Assembly: GCA_001778375.1 (NCBI GenBank)
Contig: MFGV01000074.1
Span: forward strand, 9,651 to 73,650
Direction: 5' to 3'
Length of the DNA: 64,000 nt
Source of the DNA: Candidatus Firestonebacteria bacterium RIFOXYD2_FULL_39_29
GTDB taxonomy: Bacteria > Oederibacteriota > D2-FULL-39-29
The notes under the pieces are model-generated. The model did not search any database, was not told where the DNA came from, and saw only the letters and a program-made list of their open reading frames with translations. Every line of letters starts with the position of its first letter. Position 1 is the stretch's first letter. Both the position numbers and the translations under genes were made by a program. Below are positions 39,642 through 59,498 of the stretch, in pieces.

Positions 39642-39806
39642 AATAATAGGACATTTGCCGAGACTGTCGGGGTTAACAAGATAACAAAAAAAGCTGCAAA
39701 ACTGTTCTTGATAAAAACATTTTTGGGTGCTACAATATTTTTGTTGATTGCTTTGAAGGATTTTACTTTATAAACCTTAAAAGCATTATAAACATCGTTT
39801 ACGGCT

Positions 39807-39843
39807 GCGGGCGTAATTCAGCGGTAGAATGCCACCTTCCCAA
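39807..39843 (+). repeat. 37-nt direct repeat of the tRNA-Gly 5' half (acceptor stem, D arm, anticodon stem and loop). This is the left attachment site of the integrative element.
   Basis: GCGGGCGTAATTCAGCGGTAGAATGCCACCTTCCCAA is identical to 59424-59460. The identity stops at the 3' end of the anticodon loop. Confidence 0.75.
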
Positions 39844-40263: not shown

Positions 40264-41913
40264 ATGCCAAAAGAAGATTTTAGTAGCTGGTCAAGAGAAG
40301 AATTATTAACAGAAATTAAAAAGCTAAGGAAGCGAAAAAAATATGGTATGGTGTGGGAAGATAAACCGGAGCAAGTTGCCGAGCTTTGTAAAAACAAACT
40401 CCCTGTCTTAATAGAACAACACGATAAAATAATAGAAACCAATAAAGACCTCCCTGTTAATATTTTAATTGAAGGTGACAATTATCATGCCTTGTCAGTC
40501 TTAAATTATACACATAAAAATAAAATCGATGTCATATATATAGATCCTCCTTATAATACTCGAGCAAAGGATTGGAAATATAATAACGACTACGTTGATG
40601 AAAACGATGATTATAGGCATAGCAAATGGCTCTCGATGATGAATAAAAGAATAATTTTAGCTAAGAATCTCTTAAGAAGGGACGGAGTTCTAATAGCAAC
40701 AATTGATGATCATGAATTATTGGGGTTGCTCGGATTGTTAGAAGGTGTAAATGCCAAGAATATTGGTATAGTTTCAATTTGTATTAAACCTGAAGGAAGA
40801 CGTCAAAGCAAATATATAATGGAAGCACACGAATATGCATTATTTGTAACATGGGGTACCCCGATTACCAGAGGTCTAAATGTAGACTTTGGTTTAGATT
40901 TTCCAGAAAAAGATCCGGTATCCAATTTCCGATGGGAAGGGTTGATGCGAAGAGACGCTTCGCGTGAGGACAGAGGGTCAGACTACTGGTATGCATTCCA
41001 TGTTTCTAAAGAAGGTAAAATATTTTTTGAGCCAGGTAAAGGAACGAGTGAAGTTTGGCCAATAAATGTTAAAGGGATTGAGAGGGTTTGGCTTTGGGAC
41101 AAACAAAGAGCAAAAGACAATGTGGGCGAGCTTAGTGCTGTTGTTCGAAAAGAAAGAATAACTATCTATTACAAACGTCGTGAACTTGGTCGTGTAAAAC
41201 CAACATCGTTTTGGCATGGAAGTAAGTATAATGCTAATGCATACGGCACGCGTCTTTTAAAGACGATCCTCCCAGAAACAAATTTTGATTACCCTAAAAG
41301 CTTGTACTCTGTTATGGATTGCATAGATTTGTTTCTTCCGAAGAATGGTATAGTTCTGGATTATTTTGCAGGATCTGGAACCACTGGTCATGCTGTCTTA
41401 ATGCTTAATAATGAAGACAAGGGTAGTAGAAAATTTATTGTCTGCACTAATAATGAAAATAAAATTGCAGAAGGTGTATGCTATCCAAGAATAAAAAGAG
41501 TAATAAAAGGTCTTAAAGGGCACGATGATATAACTGGAATGCCTGCAAATTTAAAGTATTATAAGACAGATTTTGTGGACGCTTCTCCGACTGATAAGAG
41601 TAAAAAGATGTTAGTTGATAAATCAACGGAAATGTTGTGTCTAAAAGAATATTGTTTTGAGGAAGTAAAAAAAGGTAAAGAATATAGAATATTCAAAGAT
41701 TCACAAAATAAGCATTTAGGTATAGTTTATGATGATGAGGGAATTGAGGATATTAAGAAGGAAATAAGAAAGATTAATAAATTAGTTGTTATATACGTTT
41801 TCTCACTTGACGAGAATGCGAGGGAAGAGGAATTTGAAGACATAAAACATCTTGTAGAATTAAAACCTATACCAGCAGTAATTTTGAATGTTTATAAGAG
41901 GATATTCAAATGA
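40264..41913 (+). CDS. mod: Type III restriction-modification system methyltransferase (Mod subunit; N6-adenine beta-class)
   Basis: Motif IV (DPPYN) precedes motif I (FAGSGTTGHA), which is the beta-class order. The gene overlaps the downstream res gene by 4 nt. Confidence 0.8.
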   Translation: MPKEDFSSWSREELLTEIKKLRKRKKYGMVWEDKPEQVAELCKNKLPVLIEQHDKIIETNKDLPVNILIEGDNYHALSVLNYTHKNKIDVIYIDPPYNTRAKDWKYNNDYVDENDDYRHSKWLSMMNKRIILAKNLLRRDGVLIATIDDHELLGLLGLLEGVNAKNIGIVSICIKPEGRRQSKYIMEAHEYALFVTWGTPITRGLNVDFGLDFPEKDPVSNFRWEGLMRRDASREDRGSDYWYAFHVSKEGKIFFEPGKGTSEVWPINVKGIERVWLWDKQRAKDNVGELSAVVRKERITIYYKRRELGRVKPTSFWHGSKYNANAYGTRLLKTILPETNFDYPKSLYSVMDCIDLFLPKNGIVLDYFAGSGTTGHAVLMLNNEDKGSRKFIVCTNNENKIAEGVCYPRIKRVIKGLKGHDDITGMPANLKYYKTDFVDASPTDKSKKMLVDKSTEMLCLKEYCFEEVKKGKEYRIFKDSQNKHLGIVYDDEGIEDIKKEIRKINKLVVIYVFSLDENAREEEFEDIKHLVELKPIPAVILNVYKRIFK

Positions 41914-44102
41914 TCGAATTAAAGGAGTATCAAAAAATAGCTATAGAAGGTCTTAAGAATAAAACAGAAAAGCTATTAAGATCTCCAGAAAATGAAGTGA
42001 TCATTTTTCAAGCTCCTACAGGCTCTGGAAAAACTGTAATGGTGTCAGAGCTGTTAAAAGAAATAGTGCGGAATAAGAAGGGTGATAAAAGTTATTCATT
42101 TGTCTGGGTGTCAGTTAGAATGCTTCATGAACAAAGCAAAGAAAAGTTAGAAAAATATTACGAAGATGATAGGCTAATAAAGTGCTCATACTTTGAAGAC
42201 TTGGAAGACAGGAAGATAAACGAAAATGAAATTTTGTTTATTAACTGGCACAGCATAAACAAGAAAGACATAAATATATTTGTAAAAGAAAATGAGCGAG
42301 ATAATAATTTGAATAGTATTATTCGGAACACAAAAGAGGAAGGAAGAACTGTAATATTAGTTATTGACGAAAGCCATCATTCCGCAAATTCAGAGAAGTC
42401 AAAAGAATTAATAGAAGTTATTGGCCCTAAAGTAACCATAGAGGTTTCTGCTACACCTCATCTAACTGACAAAGTCTCTGAGATTGAGAAAGTCCATTTA
42501 ACTGATGTTAAATCTGAAGAAATGATTAAGATGGAAATTGTTGTTAATCCTGAATTTAAAAGTATCCAAGTCGGGTCAAAAAGTGCTGACGAACTGGTAA
42601 TTGATCAGGCATTAAAGAAGAGAAAAGATTTGAAATTAATGTTCGAGAACGAAGGTTCAAATATTAATCCGCTTGTGTTAATTCAATTGCCAGACAGTAA
42701 AGGAGATTTGATTAACAAAAAAGAAGATGTGGAAAAAATTCTAGAATCAAAAGGAATTACTGAAAAGAACGGGAAATTAGCAATATGGTTGTCAGAAGAA
42801 AAAACTGATACTTTACCAAATATAGAAAAAAATGATAATGACGTAGAGGTCTTGGTATTTAAGCAAGCTATTGCGTTAGGTTGGGATTGCCCAAGAGCAT
42901 CAATTCTGGTGATATTTAGAGAATTGAAAAGTTTTGTTTTTACTATACAGACGATCGGCAGGATTATGAGAATGCCAGAGTTGCGTTATTATGTTAAGAA
43001 TGAGGAACTGAATAAAGGATTTGTTTTTACAAATCTGCCAAGCATTGAAATAACAGAGGATTACGCAAAAGACTATATATCAATATATGAAGGTAAAAGA
43101 GATAACAAGTTGTATGAGGAATTAGCCTTGTCATCAGTTTTCATGAAAAGGCAAAGAGAAAGAACACGTTTGTCAGGGGCCTTTACGAGAATATTTGTGA
43201 CGGTGGCTGATGTGAACAAATTACAAAATAAAATTAATGTGGACAAATCTAAAATTATCAATCCAATAATATCAGATGGGAAGATAAAAGATGTGGATAA
43301 ACCTGGGAAGATAGAGGACAAGGGCCAGGTGTATTTGACTTTAAGTGAGAAGGAATTGCAAGAAAAATTTGATAGATTTATCATTCAGAATTGTTCTCCT
43401 TATGCTCCAGTTGATTCAAGTGATAGAATGAAAACAGCTATATACCAATACTTTAAGCAAAAATACAAAATAGAAAAGTATGATCCAAAGGTTCAGGGTA
43501 TAGTCTTAGGGAAGGAGAATGAACAAGCATTTGTGGATGTTATAAACCTTGCAAAGGAGCGATACAAAAAAGAAGTCATAGAAAAACTATCCGAAACAAA
43601 GGAAAAGGAAGAGACGCCGGAATGGGAAGTTCCAATAGTCATTAACTATAACAAAAGGTATAAAAAAGAAGACCATGAGAAGTCTATTATTAAACCATTC
43701 TATGTGTCTGAACAAAGTGATCCCGAGAGAAAGTTTGTAGAATTGCTTGACAAATCTAGTAAGGTAAAATGGTGGTATAAGAACGGAGAGGGCGAGGTTA
43801 AATATTTTGCAGTACCGTACAAGGATGAGAATGGCATAGAAAGAAGTTTTTATGTTGATTTTGTAGTTAAATTTAAAGATGGCAGGATTGGACTATTTGA
43901 TACTAAAAGCGGAATGACAGCAGAACAGGCTGGCCCAAGAGCGGAAGGCTTACAAAAATACATTAAGAAGGAATTGAAAAAAGTAAAAAAGCTTGAGGGT
44001 GGAATAGTCATATCTGTTAAAAATAGTTGGAGAGTTAATAGTAACGATAAGTACAAATATAATAAAGATGACCTCTCGGAATGGAAAATCTTGGACATAT
44101 AG
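41910..44102 (+). CDS. res: Type III restriction enzyme Res subunit (SF2 helicase-like, DEAH-box)
   Basis: Walker A (QAPTGSGKT), the DEAH-like motif (VIDESHH), and helicase motif VI (QTIGRIMR) are present. It sits immediately after mod. Confidence 0.8.
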   Translation: MIELKEYQKIAIEGLKNKTEKLLRSPENEVIIFQAPTGSGKTVMVSELLKEIVRNKKGDKSYSFVWVSVRMLHEQSKEKLEKYYEDDRLIKCSYFEDLEDRKINENEILFINWHSINKKDINIFVKENERDNNLNSIIRNTKEEGRTVILVIDESHHSANSEKSKELIEVIGPKVTIEVSATPHLTDKVSEIEKVHLTDVKSEEMIKMEIVVNPEFKSIQVGSKSADELVIDQALKKRKDLKLMFENEGSNINPLVLIQLPDSKGDLINKKEDVEKILESKGITEKNGKLAIWLSEEKTDTLPNIEKNDNDVEVLVFKQAIALGWDCPRASILVIFRELKSFVFTIQTIGRIMRMPELRYYVKNEELNKGFVFTNLPSIEITEDYAKDYISIYEGKRDNKLYEELALSSVFMKRQRERTRLSGAFTRIFVTVADVNKLQNKINVDKSKIINPIISDGKIKDVDKPGKIEDKGQVYLTLSEKELQEKFDRFIIQNCSPYAPVDSSDRMKTAIYQYFKQKYKIEKYDPKVQGIVLGKENEQAFVDVINLAKERYKKEVIEKLSETKEKEETPEWEVPIVINYNKRYKKEDHEKSIIKPFYVSEQSDPERKFVELLDKSSKVKWWYKNGEGEVKYFAVPYKDENGIERSFYVDFVVKFKDGRIGLFDTKSGMTAEQAGPRAEGLQKYIKKELKKVKKLEGGIVISVKNSWRVNSNDKYKYNKDDLSEWKILDI

Positions 44103-44622: not shown

Positions 44623-45645
44623 ATGAAGTCAAAAACGGTACTACTTAATAAAGGAGAGATGAAATATGTTGATAACATAGATAAAACTATTAAAGATAAT
44701 AACGGTAAAGGAATAGGTAAAGGCAAGGTAATAAGAGCCATCATAAAAGCAGTTAAAAGCAAAGAGCTTGGAAATGTCGCCATTAAGAAAGCCAAGAATA
44801 TTTTAACCCTATTAATACTTACCTTCCTTTTGACCGGAATAGGTTTTGCTGAGGAAAAGATAAATGTTGCAGTGTTAAGCTTTGAGTCGAAGAATGTATC
44901 AGAGACTGACACTTCAATATTTGTAAGTTTATTTAGACACGATCTTTACAGGACAAATAAATACTTAGTGATAGGAAGAGACAAGATGGAGGATGTTTTA
45001 AAAGAACAGAAGCTCCAGATGACAGGGTGTACCTCAAGCGAGTGTGCAGTGGAAGTCGGCAAGTTACTTAATGTTCGAAAGATATTTATTGGCGACATAA
45101 ACGAGTTAGGCGGAATCTATTATATTACAGTTAGACTTCTTGACGTAGAAAGCGGTAGCGTAGATAAGTCAGAAAGAATCAGGTGCGAATCAAAAAATGA
45201 CTTCGAAGAATGTAGCGTTAAACTGGCATCTAATATTACAGGGGTTCAATTAAAATATGAACGTATGAAAACAAGTCAATATTTGTCTGAAACAAATAAA
45301 TATTCAGAGATAGTTAAGCCCTCGAAACCTTTAGACGCATGGGCATGGATAGCTGGCGGATTTGCTATTGCAACAGCAGGGAGCTACTTAAATGCTTCTA
45401 ATGAATATGATTTATATCAAAAGGCGCAGAGTAATGAGTCAGCACTTGATCATAAAACTAAAACGCAGACATGGGATACGGCAACGCTGGCATGCGGAAT
45501 TGGGACAGGGGTGTTTGGGTTGATTGCATTAATTACTAATACATCAACAGAAAGTAATGTGTCGGAATTGGATAATGACAAAATACATTTAGTATGCAAA
45601 CCTTCCTTTGACGGAATAAGCATAGCATTATGCGGGAGGTTTTAA
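44623..45645 (+). CDS. Membrane-anchored protein with a periplasmic TolB-N/CsgG-like domain (uncertain) and C-terminal TM helices
   Basis: The N-terminus has a basic cytoplasmic tail, then a TM helix. The segment INVAVLSFESKNVSETDTSIFVSLFRHDL...GKLLNVRKIFIGDINELGGIYYITVRLLDVESGSV resembles TolB-N/CsgG-type periplasmic modules. Confidence 0.35.
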   Translation: MKSKTVLLNKGEMKYVDNIDKTIKDNNGKGIGKGKVIRAIIKAVKSKELGNVAIKKAKNILTLLILTFLLTGIGFAEEKINVAVLSFESKNVSETDTSIFVSLFRHDLYRTNKYLVIGRDKMEDVLKEQKLQMTGCTSSECAVEVGKLLNVRKIFIGDINELGGIYYITVRLLDVESGSVDKSERIRCESKNDFEECSVKLASNITGVQLKYERMKTSQYLSETNKYSEIVKPSKPLDAWAWIAGGFAIATAGSYLNASNEYDLYQKAQSNESALDHKTKTQTWDTATLACGIGTGVFGLIALITNTSTESNVSELDNDKIHLVCKPSFDGISIALCGRF

Positions 45646-45646
45646 A

Positions 45647-46024
45647 GTGAAGCCAATTAATAGAATAACGGTAGTACTAATATTAAGCGTTTTGATAGGT
45701 GTTGGATGTACCCGTAGTTGGAACAATCCTTATGATTCAATAAATCTCGCAACAAAAATACAGGCATACAAACCGAATATAACTACGATTGGAAATACTT
45801 CAACCACTATGAGATTAACTTGGAATATAAAATATGGGGAAGAATGGACAAGCTCATATACGAGTAACATCTATAGAGATGGGGTGAAAATAGGAACAAC
45901 CACTGCAACATATTATGAGGATTATCCAGTTGTTATCGGGACGACATATTCTTATCAAAGGACTATTTCTGGAGAAGGGGTAGAAAGTTTAAAAAGTGAC
46001 GTCGCAATCTATAAAGCGAATTAA
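45647..46024 (+). CDS. Small lipoprotein (FN3-like beta-rich)
   Basis: Lipobox LIGVGC. Confidence 0.4.
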   Translation: MKPINRITVVLILSVLIGVGCTRSWNNPYDSINLATKIQAYKPNITTIGNTSTTMRLTWNIKYGEEWTSSYTSNIYRDGVKIGTTTATYYEDYPVVIGTTYSYQRTISGEGVESLKSDVAIYKAN

Positions 46025-46038
46025 GAATGAGGTGCGTT

Positions 46039-46734
46039 ATGAGTAGAAAAGATGTTGGCTTGTTTATATTAGGGCTAGTAATTGTATTTGTTGGAGGTTG
46101 TGGACAAGGTGAAATTGAAAAACTAAAATCAGAGAATGCTTCATTGAAGAATGAGATCAAGTGTTTAAAAGAGACGGCAGATTATCATTATAAGGAAGGT
46201 GTTTTATTATTGAAGGATAAGTCATATTATAATGCGAAAACGGAGTTTGAAGCTGTAATTGAGAAGTATCCAACGAGTTCTTTAGTTGCATCTTCAAGGG
46301 AGCGTTTAACTGAAATTAATAGGGAGTTGGTAAGGGTCGAGGCGGAAAGGATCGCTGGAGAAAAGCGTAGACAAGAAGAAGAAAAATACAAGCCAAAAGA
46401 AGATCGGGATGCAAAAGATGAATGGGTCAACTTTCGTAGTGCTGAGGAAAAATACAAAGGAACCGTTACAACTTGGAGATTTAAAGTGAGTTACATTTCA
46501 AGGGAAAATCCCTTGGGTCGTCTGGCTTCGAGTTACAGGGATAATAATAGCTATAGTGTTAGTGTTCTTGGTCCAGAGGGGTATACATATCAATGTGCTG
46601 TTATGTTAAAAAAAGTTCCAGAAGTTAAGGAAGACGATTGGATGGTCGTTACTGGGAAATTTGAATACGTTTCTTCAGACAACGTTGTAGTACTAAGTCC
46701 TATTAAGGTAATTAACGAAGGTTTCAAGAAATAA
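46039..46734 (+). CDS. Lipoprotein with a coiled-coil and TPR-like region
   Basis: Lipobox FVGGC. The YYNAKTEFEAVIEKYP motif is BamD/YbgF-like. Confidence 0.4.
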   Translation: MSRKDVGLFILGLVIVFVGGCGQGEIEKLKSENASLKNEIKCLKETADYHYKEGVLLLKDKSYYNAKTEFEAVIEKYPTSSLVASSRERLTEINRELVRVEAERIAGEKRRQEEEKYKPKEDRDAKDEWVNFRSAEEKYKGTVTTWRFKVSYISRENPLGRLASSYRDNNSYSVSVLGPEGYTYQCAVMLKKVPEVKEDDWMVVTGKFEYVSSDNVVVLSPIKVINEGFKK

Positions 46735-49134: not shown

Positions 49135-49203
49135 GATATTTGCAATAGAGGGTTAGTAGGCAGTTTAAAGATAGTTCAATAGAGGGTTTACGAGGTACCC
49201 AAA

Positions 49204-49653
49204 ATGGTTAAATTATATTTTAAAAGGGCAATTCTAAGAAATAATAGTGGGATAGGTAGTTTATATGAAAAGATAGGATTTGAGAATATTCTATCAGGAG
49301 AAATACGGCACCCTGTTAAAAGGAGAAAAACTATCTCGACCTTATATTCTTATTTATTTAATTATTGTTTCAGGGAGAAACCACCTATTCAACTATCTAT
49401 GAAACCCTATGAAACTATCTATTTTTACAAATCCCAGAAAAACCTACTCTTTATAATATTTGTTCCTAAAAACTTGGGACAAATAGGAAGAAAGTTAACT
49501 CATGGCATAAAGCAGACGGGAGAGGACGGATTAAAATTTACTCAAGAAGGGGGTGTGATAAATATTTCGGGTTATAGATTGTTAGTGATCATCACTAATG
49601 AGCAAGGGTTTACGGATAAGACTATACCAAAGGAAGTTTTGGTTTTGTTCTAA
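49204..49653 (+). CDS. Hypothetical protein
   Basis: ORF only. A direct repeat (CAATAGAGGGTT twice) lies just upstream. Confidence 0.3.
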   Translation: MVKLYFKRAILRNNSGIGSLYEKIGFENILSGEIRHPVKRRKTISTLYSYLFNYCFREKPPIQLSMKPYETIYFYKSQKNLLFIIFVPKNLGQIGRKLTHGIKQTGEDGLKFTQEGGVINISGYRLLVIITNEQGFTDKTIPKEVLVLF

Positions 49654-49720
49654 AAAGGAGGGGTTTTGTTATAGAAAACCAAAGGATACTTGGGGTGTAC
49701 TATAGACGGGACGGATAGGC

Positions 49721-50263
49721 ATGGATAAGAAAATGCGTATAACGGGGGTAAAGATGACAAAAAAGGATAGAATCGAATGGAGCGTGGCAAAAGAACTGGC
49801 GGATAGGGTCTGTAAAGAGCTTGAACCTTGGTGTGAAAGGATAGTTGTGGCAGGGTCTATAAGGCGGATGAAACCAATAGTCGGAGACATTGATTTGATT
49901 GCAAAAACAAAGCAAGAATATACCAGAGAGTTTGTAATGCAAAAGTTCTGCGTTTTAGGAGAACAGATAATAATGAGCGGGATAGTAAAAAGCTCGATAG
50001 TCAAGGAAGGCAAGCAAATTGATTTGAACCTGCTCTTAAGTAATAACAATTGCTCTGGTGCATTTATTCTTCATCACACAGGAGGGTGGATCTCAAATAT
50101 GAAGCTAAGGCAAGTAGCAAAGAACAAGGGTCTAATGTTAAGCCAGTACGGTGTGTTTAAAGTAAGCCCTGATGGGACTCAGGAATTCATAGCAGGAGAG
50201 ACGGAAGAATCAGTTTACAAAGTGTTGGGGCTTCCGTACGTAATTCCTGAACGGAGAGAATAA
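49721..50263 (+). CDS. Mini family-X DNA polymerase / Pol-beta-like nucleotidyltransferase (palm and thumb only, 180 aa)
   Basis: [16 protein letters not shown] matches GSFRRGAESSGDMDVLL of Pol beta (two catalytic Asp). QIDLNLL matches RIDIRLI (third Asp). [36 protein letters not shown] matches [50 protein letters not shown] matches IFDYIQWKYREPKDRSE. Confidence 0.7.
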   Translation: [180 protein letters not shown]

Positions 50264-50430
50264 AATGGCGAAACATAAGCTAACCTCGTTAATCACTGAA
50301 ATTGAAGGTTATTGTTGGAGCATAAACCAAATATATTATGGGTGGAATGATCGGGTGTATAAACCCCGTTTAAACGAGAATTTGATGGGAGGCATTAAAG
50401 GTATGGAAGGTAATATTGGATACTTAAAAA

Positions 50431-51045
50431 ATGGAGGTGGTTAAGATGTATACAAGGAAGAAAGAAAGTGAATTCTTAACGGAGGATGAGGCAAGGTTGA
50501 TTTGTTCCCTGCCTGATCAAAGGACGGCAGAGGGTAAAAGAGATATGGCAATTCTAACCCTGATGTTAACGACAGGATGTAGAAAAGCCGAAGTCTGTGA
50601 TCTAACGGTAGGGAGTATAAAAGATTACAGGAACCAAAAAATATTGGAGGTTATCGGTAAAGGAAATAAGCTCAGGAGGATTGCTCTAAAGCCAGATACT
50701 TGTGAATTGATTATGAAGTATCACAGGGCAATCGGAAACGGTCATGATCCGAGCCAGCCGTTGTTTCTAACTCTTGGTAAGCACGGGCCATTTAAGAAAC
50801 AAGGGTTAACTCATTGTGCAGTGGATTGTATAGTCTGGAAGTATGCCGAGAAAAGTTGCCTAACAAAAAGAATAACGCCGCATACTTTAAGGCATACGTT
50901 TGCCACGACCTTACTTTCAAAAGGAGTGGATTTAAGGACTGTCCAAGATCTCATGGGTCATTCCGCAATAAGCACGACTGAGTTATATCTTCATACAAAT
51001 GACGACAAAAAGTTTGAAGCTGTCTGGAAACTAAACTTTAATTAA
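50431..51045 (+). CDS. Minimal tyrosine recombinase (catalytic domain only, 204 aa)
   Basis: The catalytic R (TGCRKAEV), H-x-x-R (PHTLRHTFAT) and Tyr (TTELYLHT) are all present. There is no N-terminal core-binding domain. Confidence 0.6.
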   Translation: MEVVKMYTRKKESEFLTEDEARLICSLPDQRTAEGKRDMAILTLMLTTGCRKAEVCDLTVGSIKDYRNQKILEVIGKGNKLRRIALKPDTCELIMKYHRAIGNGHDPSQPLFLTLGKHGPFKKQGLTHCAVDCIVWKYAEKSCLTKRITPHTLRHTFATTLLSKGVDLRTVQDLMGHSAISTTELYLHTNDDKKFEAVWKLNFN

Positions 51046-51057
51046 AGGAGGATAAAA

Positions 51058-51537
51058 ATGTACGGTGTTCGTAAACCAGAAAAGAAAAACGCTGAAAGGA
51101 TGAGGAGACTTAAAATTACGGCTGTTAAGGTTTGGCTGTATCATTACGAGAACGGAAAGCTGATTGAAAGTTATATCCGTTCATTGGATAAGTACGATAG
51201 GCAAGGCAGAGTAATATCTTCAGAGCAGTATAATAATAAAGGCAAGGTTACCTCCAAAAGTATTTACGGGTACTTGAATGACGGGAGGATTACCGAGGTA
51301 AAATATTTACATGGCAAGAAGCTTTGGCAGATGAGCTACCGTTATACAAAGGATAAACAGATTTCTGTGATTAGATTCTTTACTCAGAAAGGCAGGATTA
51401 AGAAGCTCCGAAGATATGTTACAAGGTTTGATGAAAAGGGCAATGTTTTGGAATCAATAACCACCGATCAAAAAGGTAGAAAATATATTCTTGAAAAGTT
51501 CGTCCATGAGTATTCCAAGGAGACGGAGGCGATATGA
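51058..51537 (+). CDS. MORN-variant/YwqK-like repeat protein
   Basis: The units YENGKLIESY / YDRQGRVISSEQY / NNKGKVTSKSIYGY / LNDGRITEVKY repeat. Confidence 0.4.
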   Translation: MYGVRKPEKKNAERMRRLKITAVKVWLYHYENGKLIESYIRSLDKYDRQGRVISSEQYNNKGKVTSKSIYGYLNDGRITEVKYLHGKKLWQMSYRYTKDKQISVIRFFTQKGRIKKLRRYVTRFDEKGNVLESITTDQKGRKYILEKFVHEYSKETEAI

Positions 51538-51779
51538 AGGGTTTGTTGAAGAGGATGAAAGATGGGGATGTCGTGGTGGTTGTTACTGGCAAAGTTACAG
51601 AAAACTTAAGAGGTATTCTAGAGGCATTGGTAAAGCGTAATAATAGTTTAGTTGTAAAAAAGGTTTCAAGAAAGAAGCGCCACATCACGATAAAAGAAGT
51701 ATATGATGATTTGATTGTAAGAAGGGCTGTAATTATCCTTACTGATAAAGCAGAATACGAAGCCATAGTAATTGGATAG
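51534..51779 (+). CDS. Hypothetical small protein
   Basis: ORF only. It overlaps the upstream stop codon. Confidence 0.3.
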   Translation: MKGLLKRMKDGDVVVVVTGKVTENLRGILEALVKRNNSLVVKKVSRKKRHITIKEVYDDLIVRRAVIILTDKAEYEAIVIG

Positions 51780-51820
51780 TTGTCTGTAGACAAAAGGCAA
51801 GTAATGTGTTATACTATAAT
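51780..51820 (+). promoter_or_regulatory. Promoter with an overlapping operator. A perfect 6-2-6 palindrome (TTGTCT-GT-AGACAA) overlaps the -35 TAGACA. A 17-nt spacer leads to a -10 TATACT/TATAAT.
   Basis: The palindrome spans 51780-51793. The -35 is at 51787-51792. The -10 is at 51810-51815, with an overlapping TATAAT at 51815-51820. An AAGGAGG ribosome-binding site follows, then the ATG at 51839. Confidence 0.55.
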
Positions 51821-51838
51821 GGACAAGGAGGGACAACA

Positions 51839-52435
51839 ATGGACAATGCAGATGAATTACCATGTATAGGGGAGATGTTAACTATTGAAGATGTATCGAA
51901 GTATTTAAAGGTAAACAAAAAGACAATTTACAGGATGATTAACTTAAGACAGATACCTGCTTTCAAAGTAAGTAACCAATGGCGATTTAAAAAATGTGAA
52001 CTTGACAAATGGATTGATGAAAGCAATGTTGTAACAGAGATTCCGATTCTAGGAACAGTTGCGGCAGGGAAACCCATGTTTGCAGAGGAAAATTATGAAG
52101 GGATGCTTACAGTAGATAAGTCAATAGTCGGGAAGTCAAAAGATATTTTTGCGCTGAAAGTTAAAGGTTCGAGTATGATCGATGGGAACATAGAAGACGG
52201 GGACTATATTGTTATCCAAAAACAGCCTCAAGTTTTTCAAGGCGAAAGAGCTGTTGTAATTGTAAACGGCGAGGCCACGGTAAAAAAGTACTATGAAGAA
52301 CAAAATATGATCAGATTGCAACCACAAAATGAAACAATGCAACCAATTATTGTTGACCCGAGTACGAATGAAGTTTCTATTGCTGGTAAAGTTAAAGCTG
52401 TCATTAAAAGAAATAAAAAAGTTGTGAGGGATTAA
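51839..52435 (+). CDS. LexA-like self-cleaving repressor: excisionase/MerR-type HTH fused to an S24 peptidase domain
   Basis: The N-terminal HTH_17-like segment is MLTIEDVSKYLKVNKKTIYRMINLRQIPAFKVSNQWRF. The cleavage-site region is GTVAAGKP (LexA VAAGEP). Ser and Lys are in LexA-like contexts (KVKGSSMIDGNIEDGDYIVIQK; ERAVVIVNGEATVKKY). The start is taken at the ribosome-binding-site-supported internal ATG. Its stop (TAA) lies 1 nt before the capV ATG. Confidence 0.7.
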   Translation: MDNADELPCIGEMLTIEDVSKYLKVNKKTIYRMINLRQIPAFKVSNQWRFKKCELDKWIDESNVVTEIPILGTVAAGKPMFAEENYEGMLTVDKSIVGKSKDIFALKVKGSSMIDGNIEDGDYIVIQKQPQVFQGERAVVIVNGEATVKKYYEEQNMIRLQPQNETMQPIIVDPSTNEVSIAGKVKAVIKRNKKVVRD

Positions 52436-52436
52436 A

Positions 52437-53384
52437 ATGAATGATTGTTTTCAAATACTTTCATTAGATGGCGGTGGGATAAAAGGTCTATTCTCGGCAG
52501 TGTTACTTGCTAAGCTTGAAGAAGACCTCAAAATAAAGGTGATTGATCATTTTGATTTAATAGTAGGAACTTCTACCGGAGGTATTATTGCTTTGGGCCT
52601 CGGGTTGGGAATGACGCCAAAGGAGATTGTCGACTTTTATCTTGAGAAAGGCCCAAGGATATTTGCCGGTATCCCTGTTGCTTCATGGTTTAAACATATT
52701 TTATTTAATAAATATGATGGGAAAATACTAGAAGATATTTTAAAAGATGATAAATGTTTTGGTTCGAGATTGCTTGGAGAAAGCAAAAAACGATTGGTAA
52801 TACCATCTTTTGATACTGATTCGGGAGAAGTGTATATTTTTAAGACGGCACACCATGAACGGTTTAAACGAGATTTCAAATATCCTGCTTGGAAAGTAGC
52901 GCGTGCAACAACAGCAGCGCCTTCATTTTTTCCGACATGTAAGTGCATTGATAACATTAGTTTGGTGGATGGAGGATTGTGGGCGAATAATCCGAGTATG
53001 ATTGGCTTGGTTGAGGCAATCAAGGTATTAGAAATACCTATTGATACGATAAAAATATTGAATATCGGGACAACAGAAGAATTATCAAAAAAATCCTTTG
53101 TATTGAAATATTTCGGGGGTTGGTTGCCAAGGGCTTTGCCTGCTATTAAAACGATATTGCAAGCTCAATCTTCCGCGGTTTGTTCTCAATGCAAGTTATT
53201 AATAAAAGATCACTATGTTAGAATTAGTCCAAAAGTACCAGAAGGATTATTCAAATTGGATAAGCTAAACATGCAAGACTTGTATGCTTTTGCTTCAAAG
53301 CATAGCAGAGATAACTCTCCTATTTTTGAGAATGTTTTTTCTGGACACAAGTCAGGAGAGTTTGTCCCAATTCACAAAATATAA
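52437..53384 (+). CDS. capV: Patatin-like phospholipase (CBASS CapV-type effector)
   Basis: Oxyanion hole (ILSLDGGGIKG), GxSxG (VGTSTGG), catalytic Asp (LVDGGLWANNP). Confidence 0.75.
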   Translation: MNDCFQILSLDGGGIKGLFSAVLLAKLEEDLKIKVIDHFDLIVGTSTGGIIALGLGLGMTPKEIVDFYLEKGPRIFAGIPVASWFKHILFNKYDGKILEDILKDDKCFGSRLLGESKKRLVIPSFDTDSGEVYIFKTAHHERFKRDFKYPAWKVARATTAAPSFFPTCKCIDNISLVDGGLWANNPSMIGLVEAIKVLEIPIDTIKILNIGTTEELSKKSFVLKYFGGWLPRALPAIKTILQAQSSAVCSQCKLLIKDHYVRISPKVPEGLFKLDKLNMQDLYAFASKHSRDNSPIFENVFSGHKSGEFVPIHKI

Positions 53385-53401
53385 TGTAGGAGGAAAAGAA
53401 A

Positions 53402-54517
53402 ATGTTAACAGCTGATAGAGTTTTAAAACTTGCGCATGACTTAGATTCAATTGTGGAAAATTTAGATATATCTGAAAGCAGATATTTAGAAGCTGTAAAA
53501 AGATATGAAGCTGTTGGATCATGGTTGAGTAGTGAAAAGTCTCCATTGCTTAAATTAAAGTTCATACCAAGGATATATTCTCAAGGCTCTTTTCGTCTTG
53601 GTACTGTAGTAAGGCCGATCAATAATAAAGATGAGTGCGATATTGACTTGGTATGTTTACTAACAGCAGAAGAGCAGAAAAGCATTACATCGAAAGAACT
53701 AAAAGAAATTGTCGGGGAAAGCCTGAAACAGAATGGGATATACGCAAAGTTGCTCGATAAAGAAGGAAGAAGGTGTTGGACGCTCAATTACGAGAATGAG
53801 TTCCATTTGGATATTTTACCTGCCATATTAGATGTAGAACTAAATAAAGTTGGTGGTTTGTATAAAACAGCGATAAAAATTACCGATAAAGCTGAGAGTG
53901 TGTATAAGTGGGAGCCTAGTAATCCAGATGGATATGCGACATGGTTTTCAGAAAGGCAAAAATTGATATTTGCCAGCTTAAAAAAATCTATGGCTGCATC
54001 TTTAAAAGAGAGTATAGATGAAGTACCAGATTATAAAGTCAGGACACCTCTTCAGAAGAGTGTTCAAGTTCTTAAGCGTCATCGAGATGTATATTTTGAT
54101 GGAAAAGAGAATAAGCCTGCATCTATAATCATTACAACTATATGTGCTGTGTTATACAATGGGCAAGCGGATGTGTATACTGCTTTGCATGACATCTTGA
54201 GTGATTTTGATATTGAACAATATAAGAAGGAAGAAGGCTATTATTTGGCTAATCCGTCCAATATTGCTGAGAATTTTATGGAGAGATGGAATGAAGATGA
54301 CTCCCTTCCATTGGCTTTCTTTGAGTGGTTGGAAGATGCTAAGAATGATTTTTGTGATACAGGATTGATAAGAAAAAGTAGTGCAGATGTAACTACCATT
54401 CTCGAGGCAAAACTTGGAACCACTATAAAGACTACAAGAAATAATCTTGTTAATAGCGTTCCTCTAGTATCAATAAACACTGGGAATGTTAGCAAGAGAC
54501 AGCCATGGGGTTTGTAG
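53402..54517 (+). CDS. cGAS/DncV-like nucleotidyltransferase (CD-NTase)
   Basis: GSFRLGTVVRPINNKDECDIDLV matches GS-x(n)-DxD. The third acidic residue sits in HLDILPA, the hDhhPA strand typical of CD-NTases. A strong ribosome-binding site (AGGAGG) is present. The gene lies between a patatin effector and an E2-like gene. Confidence 0.65.
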   Translation: MLTADRVLKLAHDLDSIVENLDISESRYLEAVKRYEAVGSWLSSEKSPLLKLKFIPRIYSQGSFRLGTVVRPINNKDECDIDLVCLLTAEEQKSITSKELKEIVGESLKQNGIYAKLLDKEGRRCWTLNYENEFHLDILPAILDVELNKVGGLYKTAIKITDKAESVYKWEPSNPDGYATWFSERQKLIFASLKKSMAASLKESIDEVPDYKVRTPLQKSVQVLKRHRDVYFDGKENKPASIIITTICAVLYNGQADVYTALHDILSDFDIEQYKKEEGYYLANPSNIAENFMERWNEDDSLPLAFFEWLEDAKNDFCDTGLIRKSSADVTTILEAKLGTTIKTTRNNLVNSVPLVSINTGNVSKRQPWGL

Positions 54518-55218
54518 ATGTTGACAGTCAATATAAAGAATTAAGGAGTCAATACCCATATTTGTTCTTGAATAAAGATGAGAATGTTTTTCGTATTAGC
54601 GGAACAATTGTTATCAATGTTGCCGAACTAAATGATGCTTTTGAAATTGAGATAGTTATTGATAAAGAATATCCTCTGAAACCACCCTTTGTTAGAGACC
54701 TTGATTCTAAAATACCGAAAGACTACCATCGCATTAAAGGTGGATACTTTTGCTTGGAAACCCCATACACGTTAAATCAAATATTTAAACAGCAACCTAC
54801 ATTGCTTTATTTCGTTAATGAGTTAGTTATTCCGTATTTGTTTAATTATCATATGTTTCAAAAAACAGGGATAATGCCTTTTGGGCAAAGGAATCATGGA
54901 ATTACAGGCATAATGGATGATTTTAAGAATCGGTTAAATGCAAACGACGATATTACTGTAATCAAGCTTATTCAGATGTTAGTGGAAGATAATTATAGGG
55001 GCCATTATGACTGTCCGTGCGGGAGCAAAAAAAGGATTAGAAATTGTCATGCTGATAAATTGTTAAAATTAAAAGTTGAAGGATATAACTTTATGGAAGA
55101 TTATCTCATGATGGTGTTTTCTGTCAAAGATAAAGTAAATATTGTGCCATTGATTTCCAAGAAGGCAAGGCAATTTATTAAGGAGAAGGGAGATTCCCCA
55201 AAGCCAGATAAGCTATAA
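54505..55218 (+). CDS. E2 ubiquitin-conjugating-like protein (CBASS type II-short Cap2-like) with a C-terminal Cys/His cluster
   Basis: UBC-fold signature: FEIEIVIDKEYPLKPPFVRDL...DYHRIKGGYFCLETP (compare YP..PP...HPNI...GRICLDIL). CPCGSKKRIRNCH is a Zn-ribbon-like cluster. It overlaps the end of the CD-NTase gene. Confidence 0.5.
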   Translation: MGFVDVDSQYKELRSQYPYLFLNKDENVFRISGTIVINVAELNDAFEIEIVIDKEYPLKPPFVRDLDSKIPKDYHRIKGGYFCLETPYTLNQIFKQQPTLLYFVNELVIPYLFNYHMFQKTGIMPFGQRNHGITGIMDDFKNRLNANDDITVIKLIQMLVEDNYRGHYDCPCGSKKRIRNCHADKLLKLKVEGYNFMEDYLMMVFSVKDKVNIVPLISKKARQFIKEKGDSPKPDKL

Positions 55219-55569: not shown

Positions 55570-57279
55570 ATGGAAAAATCTCGGGAAGGCAATCAAAATA
55601 ATACGCACATTGTAAAAGCTGTAAGAATAGAACCTCCTGAAGTTGACGAATATTATCTTATAAGCGAAAGAGAAAAGGTGCAAGTACTGTCTTTGGAAGA
55701 TGATAATTCGGCTGAGGTTCTTTTTCAAAATGAGAAATATCCAAGGGTGGTTAATTACTTTGATGATTGGGAACTGCTCCCCTATGAAAAGATCAAAAAC
55801 CAAATCATCGAAGTAAGAGAACAGAATAAAAGACCTTTTTTGATCAAAAAAGAAGTTGCTTCCTTGGTGATAGAAAGTTTGTGTAAGCACGGATTCTTTG
55901 CTTGGAGCAACGAAGAAAGTTATTACTTTAGAAACAAAGACCACAAGCTTTTCAGTGTTAATTCGATAGCCTTTCAAGCTTTTGTCGAGTTTAGCTTTGG
56001 GTTGAATTCGACCGAAATAGAATATAAGTATTTAATTGAGAGTATCAAAGCCTACGCCTACCGTGAGAAAACAGTAACTGTTTACAACTTCTGCTTCTAT
56101 AATAGATATTTAAGTTGCCTGTATATTTCTAGCTTTGACGGGATGATGTATAGGTTAAACGGATATATAGTTGAGTCGGTTCCAAATGGGACAGACGGTA
56201 TTCTATTCATAGATGATCCAAGTTGGGAGTCATTTGAGTACTTGGGTCAGAATATAAGATCGGGATATGTCTCAGAGCTATTAGTGGATACAATAAATTT
56301 TACTTTATCAACAGAGGTGCTACTCCTTCCAAGTGAACAACGGGGTTTTTGGTTGCTAAATATATTTTCCCTGTTTTTTGAAAGTCTATTGCCTACAAAA
56401 CCACTAACGCTGTTTCTGGGTCAGAAGGGGTCTGGAAAAACCTCAACTTTGTCTTGGATATTGTCGCTTTTTTTTGGAAGCAAGGTGCGAGTTCTTTCTA
56501 TGGGAAAGGATAAAGAAGATGCTTTCCTTGCAAGTATCTGTAACGAATACTTAGTGGTCTATGACAATGTTGATGGCAAGATTCTTTGGCTAAATGACCA
56601 CTTAGCAGCTGTTGCCACGGGATCGGGTATAATTCGCAGAAAATTATACACGACGAATGAAAAGAGTAAAATGTTTCCGCGGGTGTTTATATTTTTGACT
56701 TCAAGGACTCCGAACTTTAAGAGAGATGATTTAGCAGACAGAATGCTCATTTTCAATGTTGAAACATTTAAAGAGTTCAAATCTGAAGAACAATTAAGAA
56801 AGGAAAGAGCAGATAAAAGAAACGAATTGATGACAGAATTGCTGAATGACCTTAACACAATAGTTCAACACTTGAAAACAGATGGGAACCCAGAATTTAA
56901 GACAAACCACAGGATGGCTGATTGGGCTAAATTAGTATGTAGGATAGGCAGAGTTGTAGGGGTGGAAAATAAAATTATTTTGGCATTGGAGAAGCTTCAG
57001 CATGATCAAAGTGAATTCTTGCTTGGGGATGAACCTATAGCACAGGCACTTGAATTGTGGACAGGAATACCGGGGTATGAAGCACGGAGCCTAACTGCGA
57101 AAGAGCTTCTGGATGAACTAGGGTCTGCATTCCCTGAAATAAGGAGCACATATAGGAGTCCGAAAAGTCTTGCTCAGAAACTCACACACATAGAAAAGAA
57201 TTTGAAGATCTACTATGAGATAAAGACGGAAAAGGAGGAGGGCAAAGCTAAAACATATAGTTTTAGTAAACGGAAATAG
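55570..57279 (+). CDS. Phage/plasmid primase-helicase (P4/D5-family SF3 NTPase C-terminal domain)
   Basis: Walker A (GQKGSGKTS), Walker B (LVVYDNVD), then ATGSGIIRRKLYTTNEKSKMFPRVFIFLTSRTP. This matches the LTGGDTITARKKY...FKPTAKLIFATNHLP block of P4-type primases. Confidence 0.6.
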   Translation: MEKSREGNQNNTHIVKAVRIEPPEVDEYYLISEREKVQVLSLEDDNSAEVLFQNEKYPRVVNYFDDWELLPYEKIKNQIIEVREQNKRPFLIKKEVASLVIESLCKHGFFAWSNEESYYFRNKDHKLFSVNSIAFQAFVEFSFGLNSTEIEYKYLIESIKAYAYREKTVTVYNFCFYNRYLSCLYISSFDGMMYRLNGYIVESVPNGTDGILFIDDPSWESFEYLGQNIRSGYVSELLVDTINFTLSTEVLLLPSEQRGFWLLNIFSLFFESLLPTKPLTLFLGQKGSGKTSTLSWILSLFFGSKVRVLSMGKDKEDAFLASICNEYLVVYDNVDGKILWLNDHLAAVATGSGIIRRKLYTTNEKSKMFPRVFIFLTSRTPNFKRDDLADRMLIFNVETFKEFKSEEQLRKERADKRNELMTELLNDLNTIVQHLKTDGNPEFKTNHRMADWAKLVCRIGRVVGVENKIILALEKLQHDQSEFLLGDEPIAQALELWTGIPGYEARSLTAKELLDELGSAFPEIRSTYRSPKSLAQKLTHIEKNLKIYYEIKTEKEEGKAKTYSFSKRK

Positions 57280-57727: not shown

Positions 57728-58180
57728 ATGGGTAAGGATATTATCGAAGAATTATATAATGTTGACAAAGTTCTAAATATTCCGTTTGTCGGTTTAGGGT
57801 TGATCGGAGAAAAGCTTGTGGTGTCATTTGAAAAAGACGATATGACCACAGAGAGGATGTCCTGCTTTACGGAAGGGCATTACACAGGGAATCCCAGTAT
57901 AAGGCTTCAGGCAGGGGAACGGTTCATTGTTGCCACAAGAGCTCAAAGGCAGGCTCTTACGGTCAAGCCAGAGGCTCTAAGCGTTGAACGGCGTTACTTG
58001 AGCGTGAAAGAATGTGCCGTATATACTGGGGTTAGCGTTAAAACGCTGTATCGGTGGAGCCGTGAGTCCAAAGTCCCTACCAGTAAAATCGGACATATCC
58101 TGCGGTTTGACAGGGCAGAAATAGAGAAGTGGGTAGGCAGGTATAAAAGGAGCGCTACTAATGCTGACCTTTTGGATTGA
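57728..58180 (+). CDS. Excisionase-family HTH protein (Xis-like)
   Basis: C-terminal HTH_17: LSVKECAVYTGVSVKTLYRWSRESKVPTSKIGHILRFDRAEIEKW. It lies immediately upstream of the integrase. Confidence 0.55.
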   Translation: MGKDIIEELYNVDKVLNIPFVGLGLIGEKLVVSFEKDDMTTERMSCFTEGHYTGNPSIRLQAGERFIVATRAQRQALTVKPEALSVERRYLSVKECAVYTGVSVKTLYRWSRESKVPTSKIGHILRFDRAEIEKWVGRYKRSATNADLLD

Positions 58181-58246: not shown

Positions 58247-59329
58247 ATGTTAAATGAAGCTGTTCCATATCCTAACCTGACAAGGCGTAAAAGCGGAGTA
58301 TGGCTTTCCGATTTTATTGATCCGTCAGGTAAGAGGATACGCCGTTCTTTGAAAACGAAAGACTTGCGATTGGCACAAGTAAGAGTCCGAAAGATGATGT
58401 CGGAAGCCTACGAGAAAGGATACTTCGACCTTAAGAGACCAGTAAAGATGTATTTTTCTGAATTGGCTGAGAAAGTTCTTCAATATGCTAAGGACAAAAC
58501 CAGAAGATATAAAAAGGTTTATCTGCCGACTATCAAAACGTTAACAAAACATATTGGCAGGAAAACGCTACGTGAGATTACTAAGGGCGTAGTTCAGGAA
58601 GTTCAAGCAGAGATAAAAGAAAGCATATCGGAAGTCAATTCAAATAATGCGATGGTTGTCTTAAAGCGGATGTTCAATCTAGCGATCGACTGGGAATATA
58701 TAGAAACTAATCCAGTCAGGGGCATCGAGCTTTACAAAGTGCCCAAGAGAAAAGTACGGTTTTTAACAAATGAAGAAATTGAAACTGTACTTGGTTGCTG
58801 TGTAGGGCAGATGAAGGATATCGTTTCAGTGGCTTTGCATACGGGGATGAGGAAAGGGGAAATACTCGGTTTAAAATGGGACAACGTTGACCTGAGTAAC
58901 AGGTTGATAGTCTTAGATAAAACCAAGAATAATAACATAAGAGAAATTCCCATGAGCTCTGACACCTATGGCATGCTACTGAAGAAGTATCAGGAGAGAA
59001 AGCCCCACCGAGAAGACTATGTTTTTCCAAACGCTGATAACGAGCAGTATCGAGATGTGGCGGCGTTTAGGAAGGCGGTAAGCTTGACGGGAATTAAATG
59101 CAGGTTCCATGATTTACGACACACGTTTGCTTCTCAGTTGGTTATGGCGGGCGTTGATCTTGTCACGGTCAAGGAGCTTCTGGGACACTCAGAGCTTGAT
59201 ACAACACTCATCTATGCCCATCTGGCACCGAAGCATAAGAAAGACGCCATAGCTAAGTTGGAGTTGCACTACGATAAAGTGGCGGAAGAAAGTTTTTCGT
59301 ATAGCCCAGATTTGCTCAAGAGGGCGTAA
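58247..59329 (+). CDS. int: Tyrosine site-specific integrase (P4-like, with an arm-binding N-domain)
   Basis: N-terminal LTRRKSGVWLSDFIDPSGKRIRRSL (DUF4102/arm-binding-like). Catalytic R (HTGMRKGEI), HDLRHTFAS, and Tyr (LIYAHL). It is adjacent to a tRNA gene. Confidence 0.8.
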   Translation: MLNEAVPYPNLTRRKSGVWLSDFIDPSGKRIRRSLKTKDLRLAQVRVRKMMSEAYEKGYFDLKRPVKMYFSELAEKVLQYAKDKTRRYKKVYLPTIKTLTKHIGRKTLREITKGVVQEVQAEIKESISEVNSNNAMVVLKRMFNLAIDWEYIETNPVRGIELYKVPKRKVRFLTNEEIETVLGCCVGQMKDIVSVALHTGMRKGEILGLKWDNVDLSNRLIVLDKTKNNNIREIPMSSDTYGMLLKKYQERKPHREDYVFPNADNEQYRDVAAFRKAVSLTGIKCRFHDLRHTFASQLVMAGVDLVTVKELLGHSELDTTLIYAHLAPKHKKDAIAKLELHYDKVAEESFSYSPDLLKRA

Positions 59330-59423
59330 CCGTATGGCACATTTTAGTCACATTTTGAAAAAAAGTAAATTTATCAGATTCAACTTTACAAAACGCCTTG
59401 TAGATGCTAATATAAATTCCAGT

Positions 59424-59498
59424 GCGGGCGTAATTCAGCGGTAGAATGCCACCTTCCCAAGGTGGACGTCGAGGGTTCAAGTCCCTTCGCCCGCTCCA
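59424..59498 (+). tRNA. tRNA-Gly (anticodon CCC), with an encoded 3' CCA
   Basis: GCGGGCG acceptor stem pairs with CGCCCGC. D arm is AGCGGTAGA. Anticodon stem CCACC/GGTGG carries the loop TTCCCAA. T arm is GAGGGTTCAAGTCCCTT. Discriminator is T, followed by CCA. Confidence 0.85.

Follow-up and report, generated by a model that had tools for sequence, protein, structure and literature searches.

Family X DNA polymerases (Pol X) differ chiefly in the domains that surround a common catalytic core, and the smallest described version is that of African swine fever virus (ASFV). The ASFV Pol X (O174L, 174 aa; PDB 1jaj, 5hrb) consists of a palm and a C-terminal subdomain, without the 8-kDa, helix-hairpin-helix (HhH) and exonuclease domains, and in 2026 was still cited as the smallest known DNA polymerase and the sole natural Pol X reduced to palm and thumb (PMC13252658). 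Here we describe a bacterial counterpart of this layout, encoded in a 19.6-kb integrated island of a Candidatus Firestonebacteria metagenome-assembled genome. The window analysed is a stretch of 64,000 nucleotides (contig MFGV01000074.1, positions 9,651 to 73,650, forward strand), and the gene in question, denoted hereafter mini Pol X, lies within the island. Judged by sequence, profile comparison and a predicted structure, mini Pol X is a family X DNA polymerase made of palm and C-terminal thumb only. The same combination of evidence backs the preliminary description of this stretch, which had proposed a minimal palm-and-thumb Pol X of the ASFV type carried on a mobile element. We further think it probable, well short of certainty, that the protein is an active, template-directed polymerase that fills short gaps and serves the replication or recombination of the island. 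The subdomain that Pfam names "thumb" is the C-terminal one, often termed "fingers" or N-subdomain in the current Pol beta literature; domain names in this work follow Pfam, as in the preliminary description.

Several larger relatives of mini Pol X have been described. The bacterial and archaeal PolX1 enzymes (Thermus thermophilus PolX, 3au2; Bacillus subtilis YshC) consist of an 8-kDa domain, the polymerase core and a PHP domain, and they are the closest group to mini Pol X by both sequence and structure; mini Pol X, however, is missing three of their parts: an 8-kDa domain, HhH "fingers" and a PHP exonuclease/apurinic-apyrimidinic (AP) endonuclease. It is not a PolX1 under the equivalog model for the bacterial enzyme (NCBIfam PRK08609), which matches over only positions 148-315 of 571 and scores 63.6 bits against a cut-off of 426. 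PolX2 likewise lacks the N-terminal 8-kDa domain and PHP and has a conserved active site, but carries an extra alpha-helical domain C-terminal to the core (PMC12926913). In mini Pol X the chain stops where the thumb model stops, and with no such helical domain the protein does not fit PolX2 as described. A survey of about 3000 complete bacterial genomes recognised only PolX1, PolX2 and PolX-like proteins and no palm-and-thumb-only form (PMC12926913), and such a form is included in neither the 2022 nor the 2026 survey of prokaryotic PolX (PMC9226535, PMC12926913). No prokaryotic or phage PolX of this kind is described in the literature searched, most subscription-journal papers being outside that search. 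Cultured phages encode PolX proteins (Escherichia phage IME392, 252 aa; Yersinia phage YerA41, 298 aa; Cobetia phage Carin-5) that are 28-34% identical to mini Pol X over palm and thumb but extend 70-130 residues further at the N-terminus; in IME392, the PolX gene adjoins a DNA ligase gene.

The family assignment is carried by several comparisons. The Pfam DNA_pol_B_thumb model (PF14791) matches residues 116-180 over model positions 2-63 of 63 (E=2.2e-16, 59.9 bits, cut-off 25), and DNA_pol_B_palm matches residues 19-70 just below its cut-off of 25 (E=2.6e-4, 21.6 bits). The best sequence match to a solved structure is to residues 176-315 of Thermus thermophilus PolX (E=4e-17, 33% identity), and the ASFV Pol X is matched nearly end to end (residues 38-179 of mini Pol X against 31-173 of 174, E=3.7e-7). 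A family profile of 28 stand-alone homologues, searched against PDB, reaches Thermus PolX at E=1e-41 (span 159-315), Pol lambda at 4e-27 (145-329 of 330), ASFV Pol X at 6e-24 (27-173 of 174) and Pol beta at 2e-19 (147-334 of 335). Because the profile spans Pol beta from 147 to 334, mini Pol X begins at the palm and ends at the Pol beta C-terminus, as had been claimed for its thumb. The Pfam scan detects no 8-kDa, HhH "fingers" or PHP domain, in line with the earlier statement that the lyase and fingers domains are missing, and the protein has no room for one.

The predicted structure leads to the same place. An AlphaFold2 model built on 62 homologues has a mean predicted local distance difference test (pLDDT) score of 91.3 and a predicted template modelling (TM) score of 0.83, with only residues 1-6 below 50. 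With this model as the query, the top 50 Foldseek matches in PDB are all Pol X, Pol lambda or Pol beta, the best being the ternary complex of Thermus PolX (3auo; query-normalised TM-score 0.80, root-mean-square deviation 1.9 Å, 32% identity); Pol lambda and Pol beta come next. A minimal nucleotidyltransferase of the MNT/KNTase type, an outcome that the preliminary description had named as fatal to its proposal, is rejected: the thumb subdomain is present and is the top-scoring part, no MNT or KNTase occurs among the top Foldseek matches, and those matches are all true Pol X proteins in which the C-terminal subdomain is aligned. Mini Pol X thus combines the nucleotidyltransferase palm motif, the Pol X-specific C-terminal subdomain and, in the predicted model, a superposable fold. 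Among predicted viral structures, the best matches are PolX proteins of 250-360 aa from phages and giant viruses, and the only ones of similar size are ASFV-type proteins and a 174-aa Harvfovirus protein. The PHROGs collection holds no match for mini Pol X.

All the residues by which Pol X enzymes hold the triphosphate of the incoming deoxynucleoside triphosphate (dNTP), the two metals and the nascent base pair are present in the alignments. The palm consensus hG[GS]x9-13Dh[DE]h and the third carboxylate are found as G45-S46...D56-I-D58 and D101. The first motif, G45-S46-I-R48-R49...G55-D56-I-D58, aligns without gaps with Pol beta G179-S180-F-R-R183...G189-D190-M-D192 (Pol beta residue numbers follow PMC13252658 and general knowledge). 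The three catalytic aspartates announced for this protein, D56, D58 and D101, align with Pol beta D190, D192 and D256, and their codons were confirmed by direct reading of the DNA. In the thumb, at the Pol X motif [YF]TGS...N...R, T120-G121...N126...R130 aligns with Pol beta T273-G274...N279...R283, and the equivalents of N279 and R283 (N126 and R130) argue for templated synthesis. Across 123 mini PolX sequences, namely the window protein and 122 relatives, G45, S46, R48, D56, D58, T120 and G121 are invariant, N126 is kept in 121 and R130 in 96.

Resemblance to the ASFV enzyme extends to the three catalytic aspartates and to the GS-RR and TG motifs, which are common to both proteins, but the two also differ. 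ASFV Pol X scores only 33 bits against mini Pol X, compared with 65 bits for Thermus PolX, and the BLOSUM distances are 0.80 and 0.65, respectively. Although it would act in the manner of ASFV Pol X, mini Pol X is not specifically related to it and is, by these sequence measures (the distances coming from a crude neighbour-joining tree), nearer to the bacterial PolX. At the position of Pol beta N279, ASFV Pol X has Leu whereas mini Pol X keeps Asn (N126). The hosts differ as well, a eukaryotic virus in one case and a bacterial island in the other, and ASFV encodes a partner ligase and an AP endonuclease, neither of which is found on the Firestonebacteria island. The minimal form probably arose independently within the bacterial and archaeal PolX radiation, to the extent that the crude tree can be trusted on this point.

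The open reading frame (ORF) of 180 codons is real and has the coordinates first assigned to it, but the product is probably shorter than the 180 aa then given. Homologues align only from residue ~13 onward, the NCBI product of the gene (OGF45109.1) has 169 aa, and a GGGGG run resembling a Shine-Dalgarno sequence precedes the ATG at 49754, whereas no comparable ribosome-binding site is seen at 49721; for these three reasons, the true start is probably M12. The 169-aa protein has a computed mass of 19.2 kDa and an isoelectric point of 8.9. Between orthologues at 60-62% identity, dN is ~0.3 and synonymous sites are saturated, which fits purifying selection.

Stand-alone palm-and-thumb proteins turn out to be numerous, with hundreds of PolX of 152-200 aa in metagenomes. 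An exhaustive HMMER search of 1.84 billion cluster representatives gave 4847 matches at E <= 1e-3 and 872 at E <= 1e-10; among the best 150, 31 are no longer than 200 aa, and nearly all of the short ones start with Met and stop a few residues from the C-terminal P-x-x-R motif. A profile search of a larger collection added 94 more short forms, some with the automatic Joint Genome Institute (JGI) label "DNA polymerase (family 10)", so that 122 stand-alone PolX of 152-200 aa were collected, some being shorter than the ASFV enzyme. A crude neighbour-joining tree, which is not robust, places the short forms largely apart from full-length bacterial PolX; this suggests one or a few lineages and not scattered truncations. 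The mini PolX apparently constitute a large, hitherto undescribed group in phages and mobile elements.

This group is heterogeneous at the third catalytic position. The D-D-D triad is found in 53 mini PolX, including the window protein and its close relatives, and 66 of the 123 (P0243, P0183, P0210 and P0119 among them), mostly in a group of 173-182 aa, have Asn in place of the third Asp. In these D-D-N proteins, R49 is commonly replaced by Gln and the residue equivalent to Pol beta S275 is commonly Pro, the rest of the site being conserved. Two of them, in L007 (8001-8531) and L012 (8001-8531), neighbour genes for a helicase and a DenV-type pyrimidine-dimer glycosylase on large T4-like phage contigs, and a third, in L009 (8001-8504), directly follows an NAD-dependent ligase, with UvdE and Fpg nearby. 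The four D-D-D loci that were read outside the close clade of the window protein are on phage-like contigs, two of them clearly in replication or recombination modules: in L019, the gene order is RecT, AAA protein, PolX, Rep_O and DnaC-like loader, and in L013 the mini PolX gene comes directly after a DnaC-like loader. In L018, mini PolX is found among proteins with DnaA domains, and in L011, a prophage, beside the terminase. None of 50,697 phage records contains an annotated PolX of 150-200 aa. The sole mini in these records is an unannotated 170-aa ORF of the uncultured 462-kb phage LR756500.1 (L017, 3986-4498), in which the first motif reads G-D-L-N, the second catalytic Asp being replaced by Asn.

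Within the island, mini Pol X belongs, by gene-order comparison, to the backbone and not to the defence cargo. A search of a collection of 5.8 billion proteins, with the 99%-identical cluster holding the window protein set aside, yielded only two close relatives, P0002 (62% identical) and P0152 (60%). In the metagenomic islands in which these relatives reside (L003 and L004-L006), the order helicase (69-73% identical), PolX (60-62%), short recombinase (69-77%) is retained. The DUF2958 protein is shared with L004-L006 (72% identity), but no homologue of it could be detected in L003; thus, a co-occurrence check suggested earlier gave a positive answer, with the SF3-type NTPase and DUF2958 beside mini Pol X in the window and L004-L006, and the NTPase also in L003. 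The excisionase-integrase pair that closes the window island also closes L003, but the cargo of L003 is different: RNase H-like and MORN-repeat proteins together with a DnaG-helicase fusion, versus the restriction-modification (R-M) system and the cyclic-oligonucleotide-based antiphage signalling system (CBASS) of the window island. Since the cargo changes while helicase, PolX and recombinase recur, mini Pol X is placed among the replication and recombination genes and not among exchangeable defence genes. The close clade has no relative in GTDB species genomes or IMG/VR, and is accordingly known only from metagenome contigs. The helicase-PolX linkage is limited to this close clade.

The helicase in question is the 550-aa neighbour of mini Pol X. 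Of the company first listed for the polymerase, R-M and CBASS are indeed present, but no primase domain was found; the 550-aa protein would be a superfamily 3 (SF3) helicase free of primase. The protein has no Pfam domain except a weak DUF3874 tail and no match in PHROGs or in a PDB sequence search. Its AlphaFold model (pLDDT 80) matches ASFV PrimPol, the C-terminal region of NrS-1, monkeypox virus (MPXV) E5, vaccinia D5 and the SaPI5 primase-helicase at a Foldseek probability of 1.0, with low TM-scores as expected for a flexible multi-domain protein. Because the Walker-A lysine K256 is invariant in the family, relatives bear DnaG domains and the model matches SF3 proteins, we assign the protein as a predicted SF3/D5-like replicative helicase/NTPase without a primase domain, the SF3 label in particular deriving from that pLDDT-80 model and those low-TM matches. 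The family, which takes in L003 11045-13777 and P0309-P0312 and for which there is no Pfam model, includes members of ~920 aa with an N-terminal DnaG-type primase and members of ~550 aa without primase, and some homologues are on archaeal contigs (with a TBP gene in L014).

The start of the DUF2958 gene overlaps the helicase stop. Between the DUF2958 gene and mini Pol X, a repeat-rich spacer contains AGATAGTTCAATAG at 49169, with inverted copies at 49384-49400 and 49406-49422, as well as CAATAGAGGGTT twice (49143, 49177) and GGTTTTGTTNTANAAA twice (49641, 49662); the spacer may act as a replication origin or as a target of the short recombinase. The 149-aa ORF within it has no family match and bears the NCBI label "hypothetical". 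The short recombinase downstream of the polymerase, additional to the full-length integrase, shows the residues R, K, HxxR, H and Y in its translation and may be a dimer-resolution enzyme. From helicase to recombinase, a promoter and terminator scan found fewer promoter-like sites than in shuffled sequences and no convincing terminator, which would fit a single operon without arguing for it. Mini Pol X appears to be co-transcribed with the helicase, DUF2958 and short recombinase genes. The coordinates of all these features are collected in Table 1.

Table 1. Features of the island and of the mini Pol X gene (positions within the 64,000-nucleotide window)
Feature	Coordinates	Strand	Remarks
Left island boundary, 38-nt copy of the tRNA-Gly(CCC) 5' half	39806..39843	+	Perfect direct repeat
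Type III R-M (methylase and Res helicase subunit)	40264..44102	+	Cargo
Three putative lipoproteins	44623..46734	+	
SF3 helicase (predicted), 550 aa	47156..48808	+	
DUF2958 protein, 109 aa	48805..49134	+	PF11171, 21.3 bits vs cut-off 21
Repeat-rich spacer	49135..49720		Contains unsupported 149-aa ORF (49204..49653)
Mini Pol X gene	49721..50263	+	180-aa ORF; probable start 49754 (M12), giving 169 aa
Codons of G45-S46-I-R48-R49...G55-D56-I-D58	49853..49894	+	dNTP-triphosphate-binding motif and first two catalytic aspartates
Codon of D101	50021..50023	+	Third catalytic aspartate; equivalent to Pol beta D256 and ASFV D100
Codons of T120-G121-G-W-I-S-N126-M-K-L-R130	50078..50110	+	Nascent base-pair and minor-groove contacts
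59-aa ORF	50265..50444		
Tyrosine recombinase, 204 aa, catalytic domain only	50431..51045	+	Pfam Phage_integrase E=1.4e-32
Two small ORFs	51058..51779		
LexA-like S24 peptidase with HTH_17 domain	51806..52435	+	
Type II-short CBASS (patatin phospholipase effector, CD-NTase, E2-like protein)	52437..55218	+	Cargo
AAA_15 protein	55570..57279	+	
Excisionase-like HTH_17 protein	57728..58180	+	
Full-length tyrosine integrase	58247..59329	+	Island right end
Right island boundary	59423..59498	+	Second 38-nt repeat (59423-59460) and intact tRNA-Gly(CCC) (59424-59498)

Short-gap filling, the role that we favour, would be exerted in the episomal (excised) replication or recombination phase of the island. 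Mini Pol X would play a finishing part similar to that of Pol I, at gaps that remain after primer removal, strand annealing or the processing of damage and repair intermediates, and a host ligase would then seal the nick. The enzyme would be distributive, and neither dRP-lyase (deoxyribose phosphate lyase) activity nor proofreading is expected of it because the domains carrying both are absent. Enzymatic activity, substrate preference and the biological step served are what we infer from these comparisons; the position of the cultured-phage PolX beside a DNA ligase in IME392 and that of the D-D-D minis in replication modules count in favour. Several observations weigh on the other side. Pol beta owes its recognition of gaps to the 8-kDa and HhH domains, both missing from mini Pol X; R125 and T166, which we take to be residues of the ASFV 5'-phosphate pocket, correspond to K128 and P172 in the alignment. 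No repair pathway can be read from the island, on which genes for a ligase, an AP endonuclease and a glycosylase are all missing, and the repair-gene contexts (DenV, NAD-dependent ligase, UvdE, Fpg) belong to the D-D-N minis and not to the canonical subgroup that includes the window protein. Furthermore, the contexts come from about 10 neighbourhoods, picked for long contigs, and do not amount to a statistical survey, and three helicase homologues at 30-35% identity, one of them archaeal, have no PolX nearby. This last observation tells equally against a replicative role for mini Pol X.

Under such a role, mini Pol X would be the island's own replicative or priming polymerase, acting with the primase-less SF3 helicase in a self-replicating element comparable to pipolins or casposons, but based on Pol X. 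The tight, repeated linkage to a helicase of replicative type that is free of the primase domain found in its relatives speaks for it, as do the failure to find a primase or another polymerase gene on the island, the location of at least two of the four canonical-triad minis in phage replication or recombination modules, and the repeat-rich spacer, which could be an origin. Known Pol X enzymes, however, fill gaps distributively and do not proofread, we identified nothing in mini Pol X that suggests clamp binding or strand displacement, and the host DnaG and Pol III could serve the helicase, so we regard this role as unlikely; a stronger version, in which the protein is the dedicated DNA-synthesis enzyme of an unrecognised class of tRNA-integrating, self-replicating islands, starting or extending chains with the helicase at an origin in the spacer, is a shade less likely still. 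Equally doubtful as the plain replicative role is template-independent, TdT-like activity, the addition of untemplated nucleotides to 3' ends of the element's or an invader's DNA. Both duplex-binding domains are indeed missing from mini Pol X, and an engineered Faustovirus PolX truncated to palm and thumb performs template-independent synthesis (PMC13252658), but the compact palm of the mini Pol X model has no Loop1-like insertion, the equivalents of N279 and R283, the readers of the templated nascent base pair, are conserved, and the nearest relatives are the templated bacterial PolX. A nucleotide-modifying part of a defence or anti-defence system, which had been offered as an alternative in the preliminary description, is hardly likely, and nothing in the comparison of islands speaks for it. 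Nucleotidyltransferases of the Pol beta fold are common in defence systems, and mini Pol X shares its island with Type III R-M and CBASS, but it has no PADLOC match (E <= 1e-3), stays with the backbone while the defence cargo is replaced in L003, and has the Pol X-specific C-terminal subdomain instead of a CD-NTase or MNT architecture. The least credible option, to which we give almost no weight, is that mini Pol X is what remains, without function, of a decayed full-length bacterial PolX. Degraded polymerase sites are on record for some bacterial PolX genes (PMC9226535), but here the ORF is complete, the ends of the orthologues match, all catalytic residues are intact, dN is ~0.3 with dS saturated, and there are 122 independent homologues of the same kind.

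The remainder of the island can be described briefly. It is bounded by a perfect 38-nt direct repeat that equals the 5' half of the tRNA-Gly(CCC) gene, and every large ORF is on the + strand. Islands usually come after the 3' end of the tRNA; this one is located upstream of the intact tRNA-Gly(CCC), the opposite of the usual arrangement, and given this location, the island end would supply the tRNA promoter. In Rfam, the tRNA is the only match on the island, and the small ORFs have no match in PHROGs. Two of the three putative lipoproteins weakly match known families, one CsgG and the other YfiO, and the similarity of the first lipoprotein to L003 and L004 is confined to its N-terminal 60 residues. 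In PADLOC, the CBASS genes score 1e-89 to 1e-115, and the helicase, DUF2958 protein, short recombinase, 159-aa ORF and AAA_15 protein have no match. The fusion of a LexA-like S24 peptidase with HTH_17, directly upstream of the CBASS operon, matches only mad1, via its HTH region, and may regulate the island or CBASS in response to damage. The 569-aa protein encoded between the CBASS genes and the excisionase gene resembles AAA_15 weakly, has no match in PHROGs and may be an uncharacterised defence gene.

Mini Pol X belongs to an already known minimal type of Pol X, and the new part is the large unstudied group of such proteins in phages and mobile elements, by which the minimal layout is extended to bacteria-associated mobile DNA. 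The chemistry is the expected one; what stands out is the record in size, the usefulness of such small enzymes, the backbone link to a primase-less helicase and the D-D-N subgroup. Should mini Pol X be replicative or priming after all, this would be the first such role for a family X polymerase, and no natural DNA polymerase known would be smaller than its stand-alone relatives of 152-171 aa. If active, the mini PolX would provide novel scaffolds of very small size for DNA synthesis, whether enzymatic or mirror-image, the D-D-N subgroup would pose a clear biochemical question, and the family would point to a common, overlooked gap-filling function in the replication modules of phages and islands.

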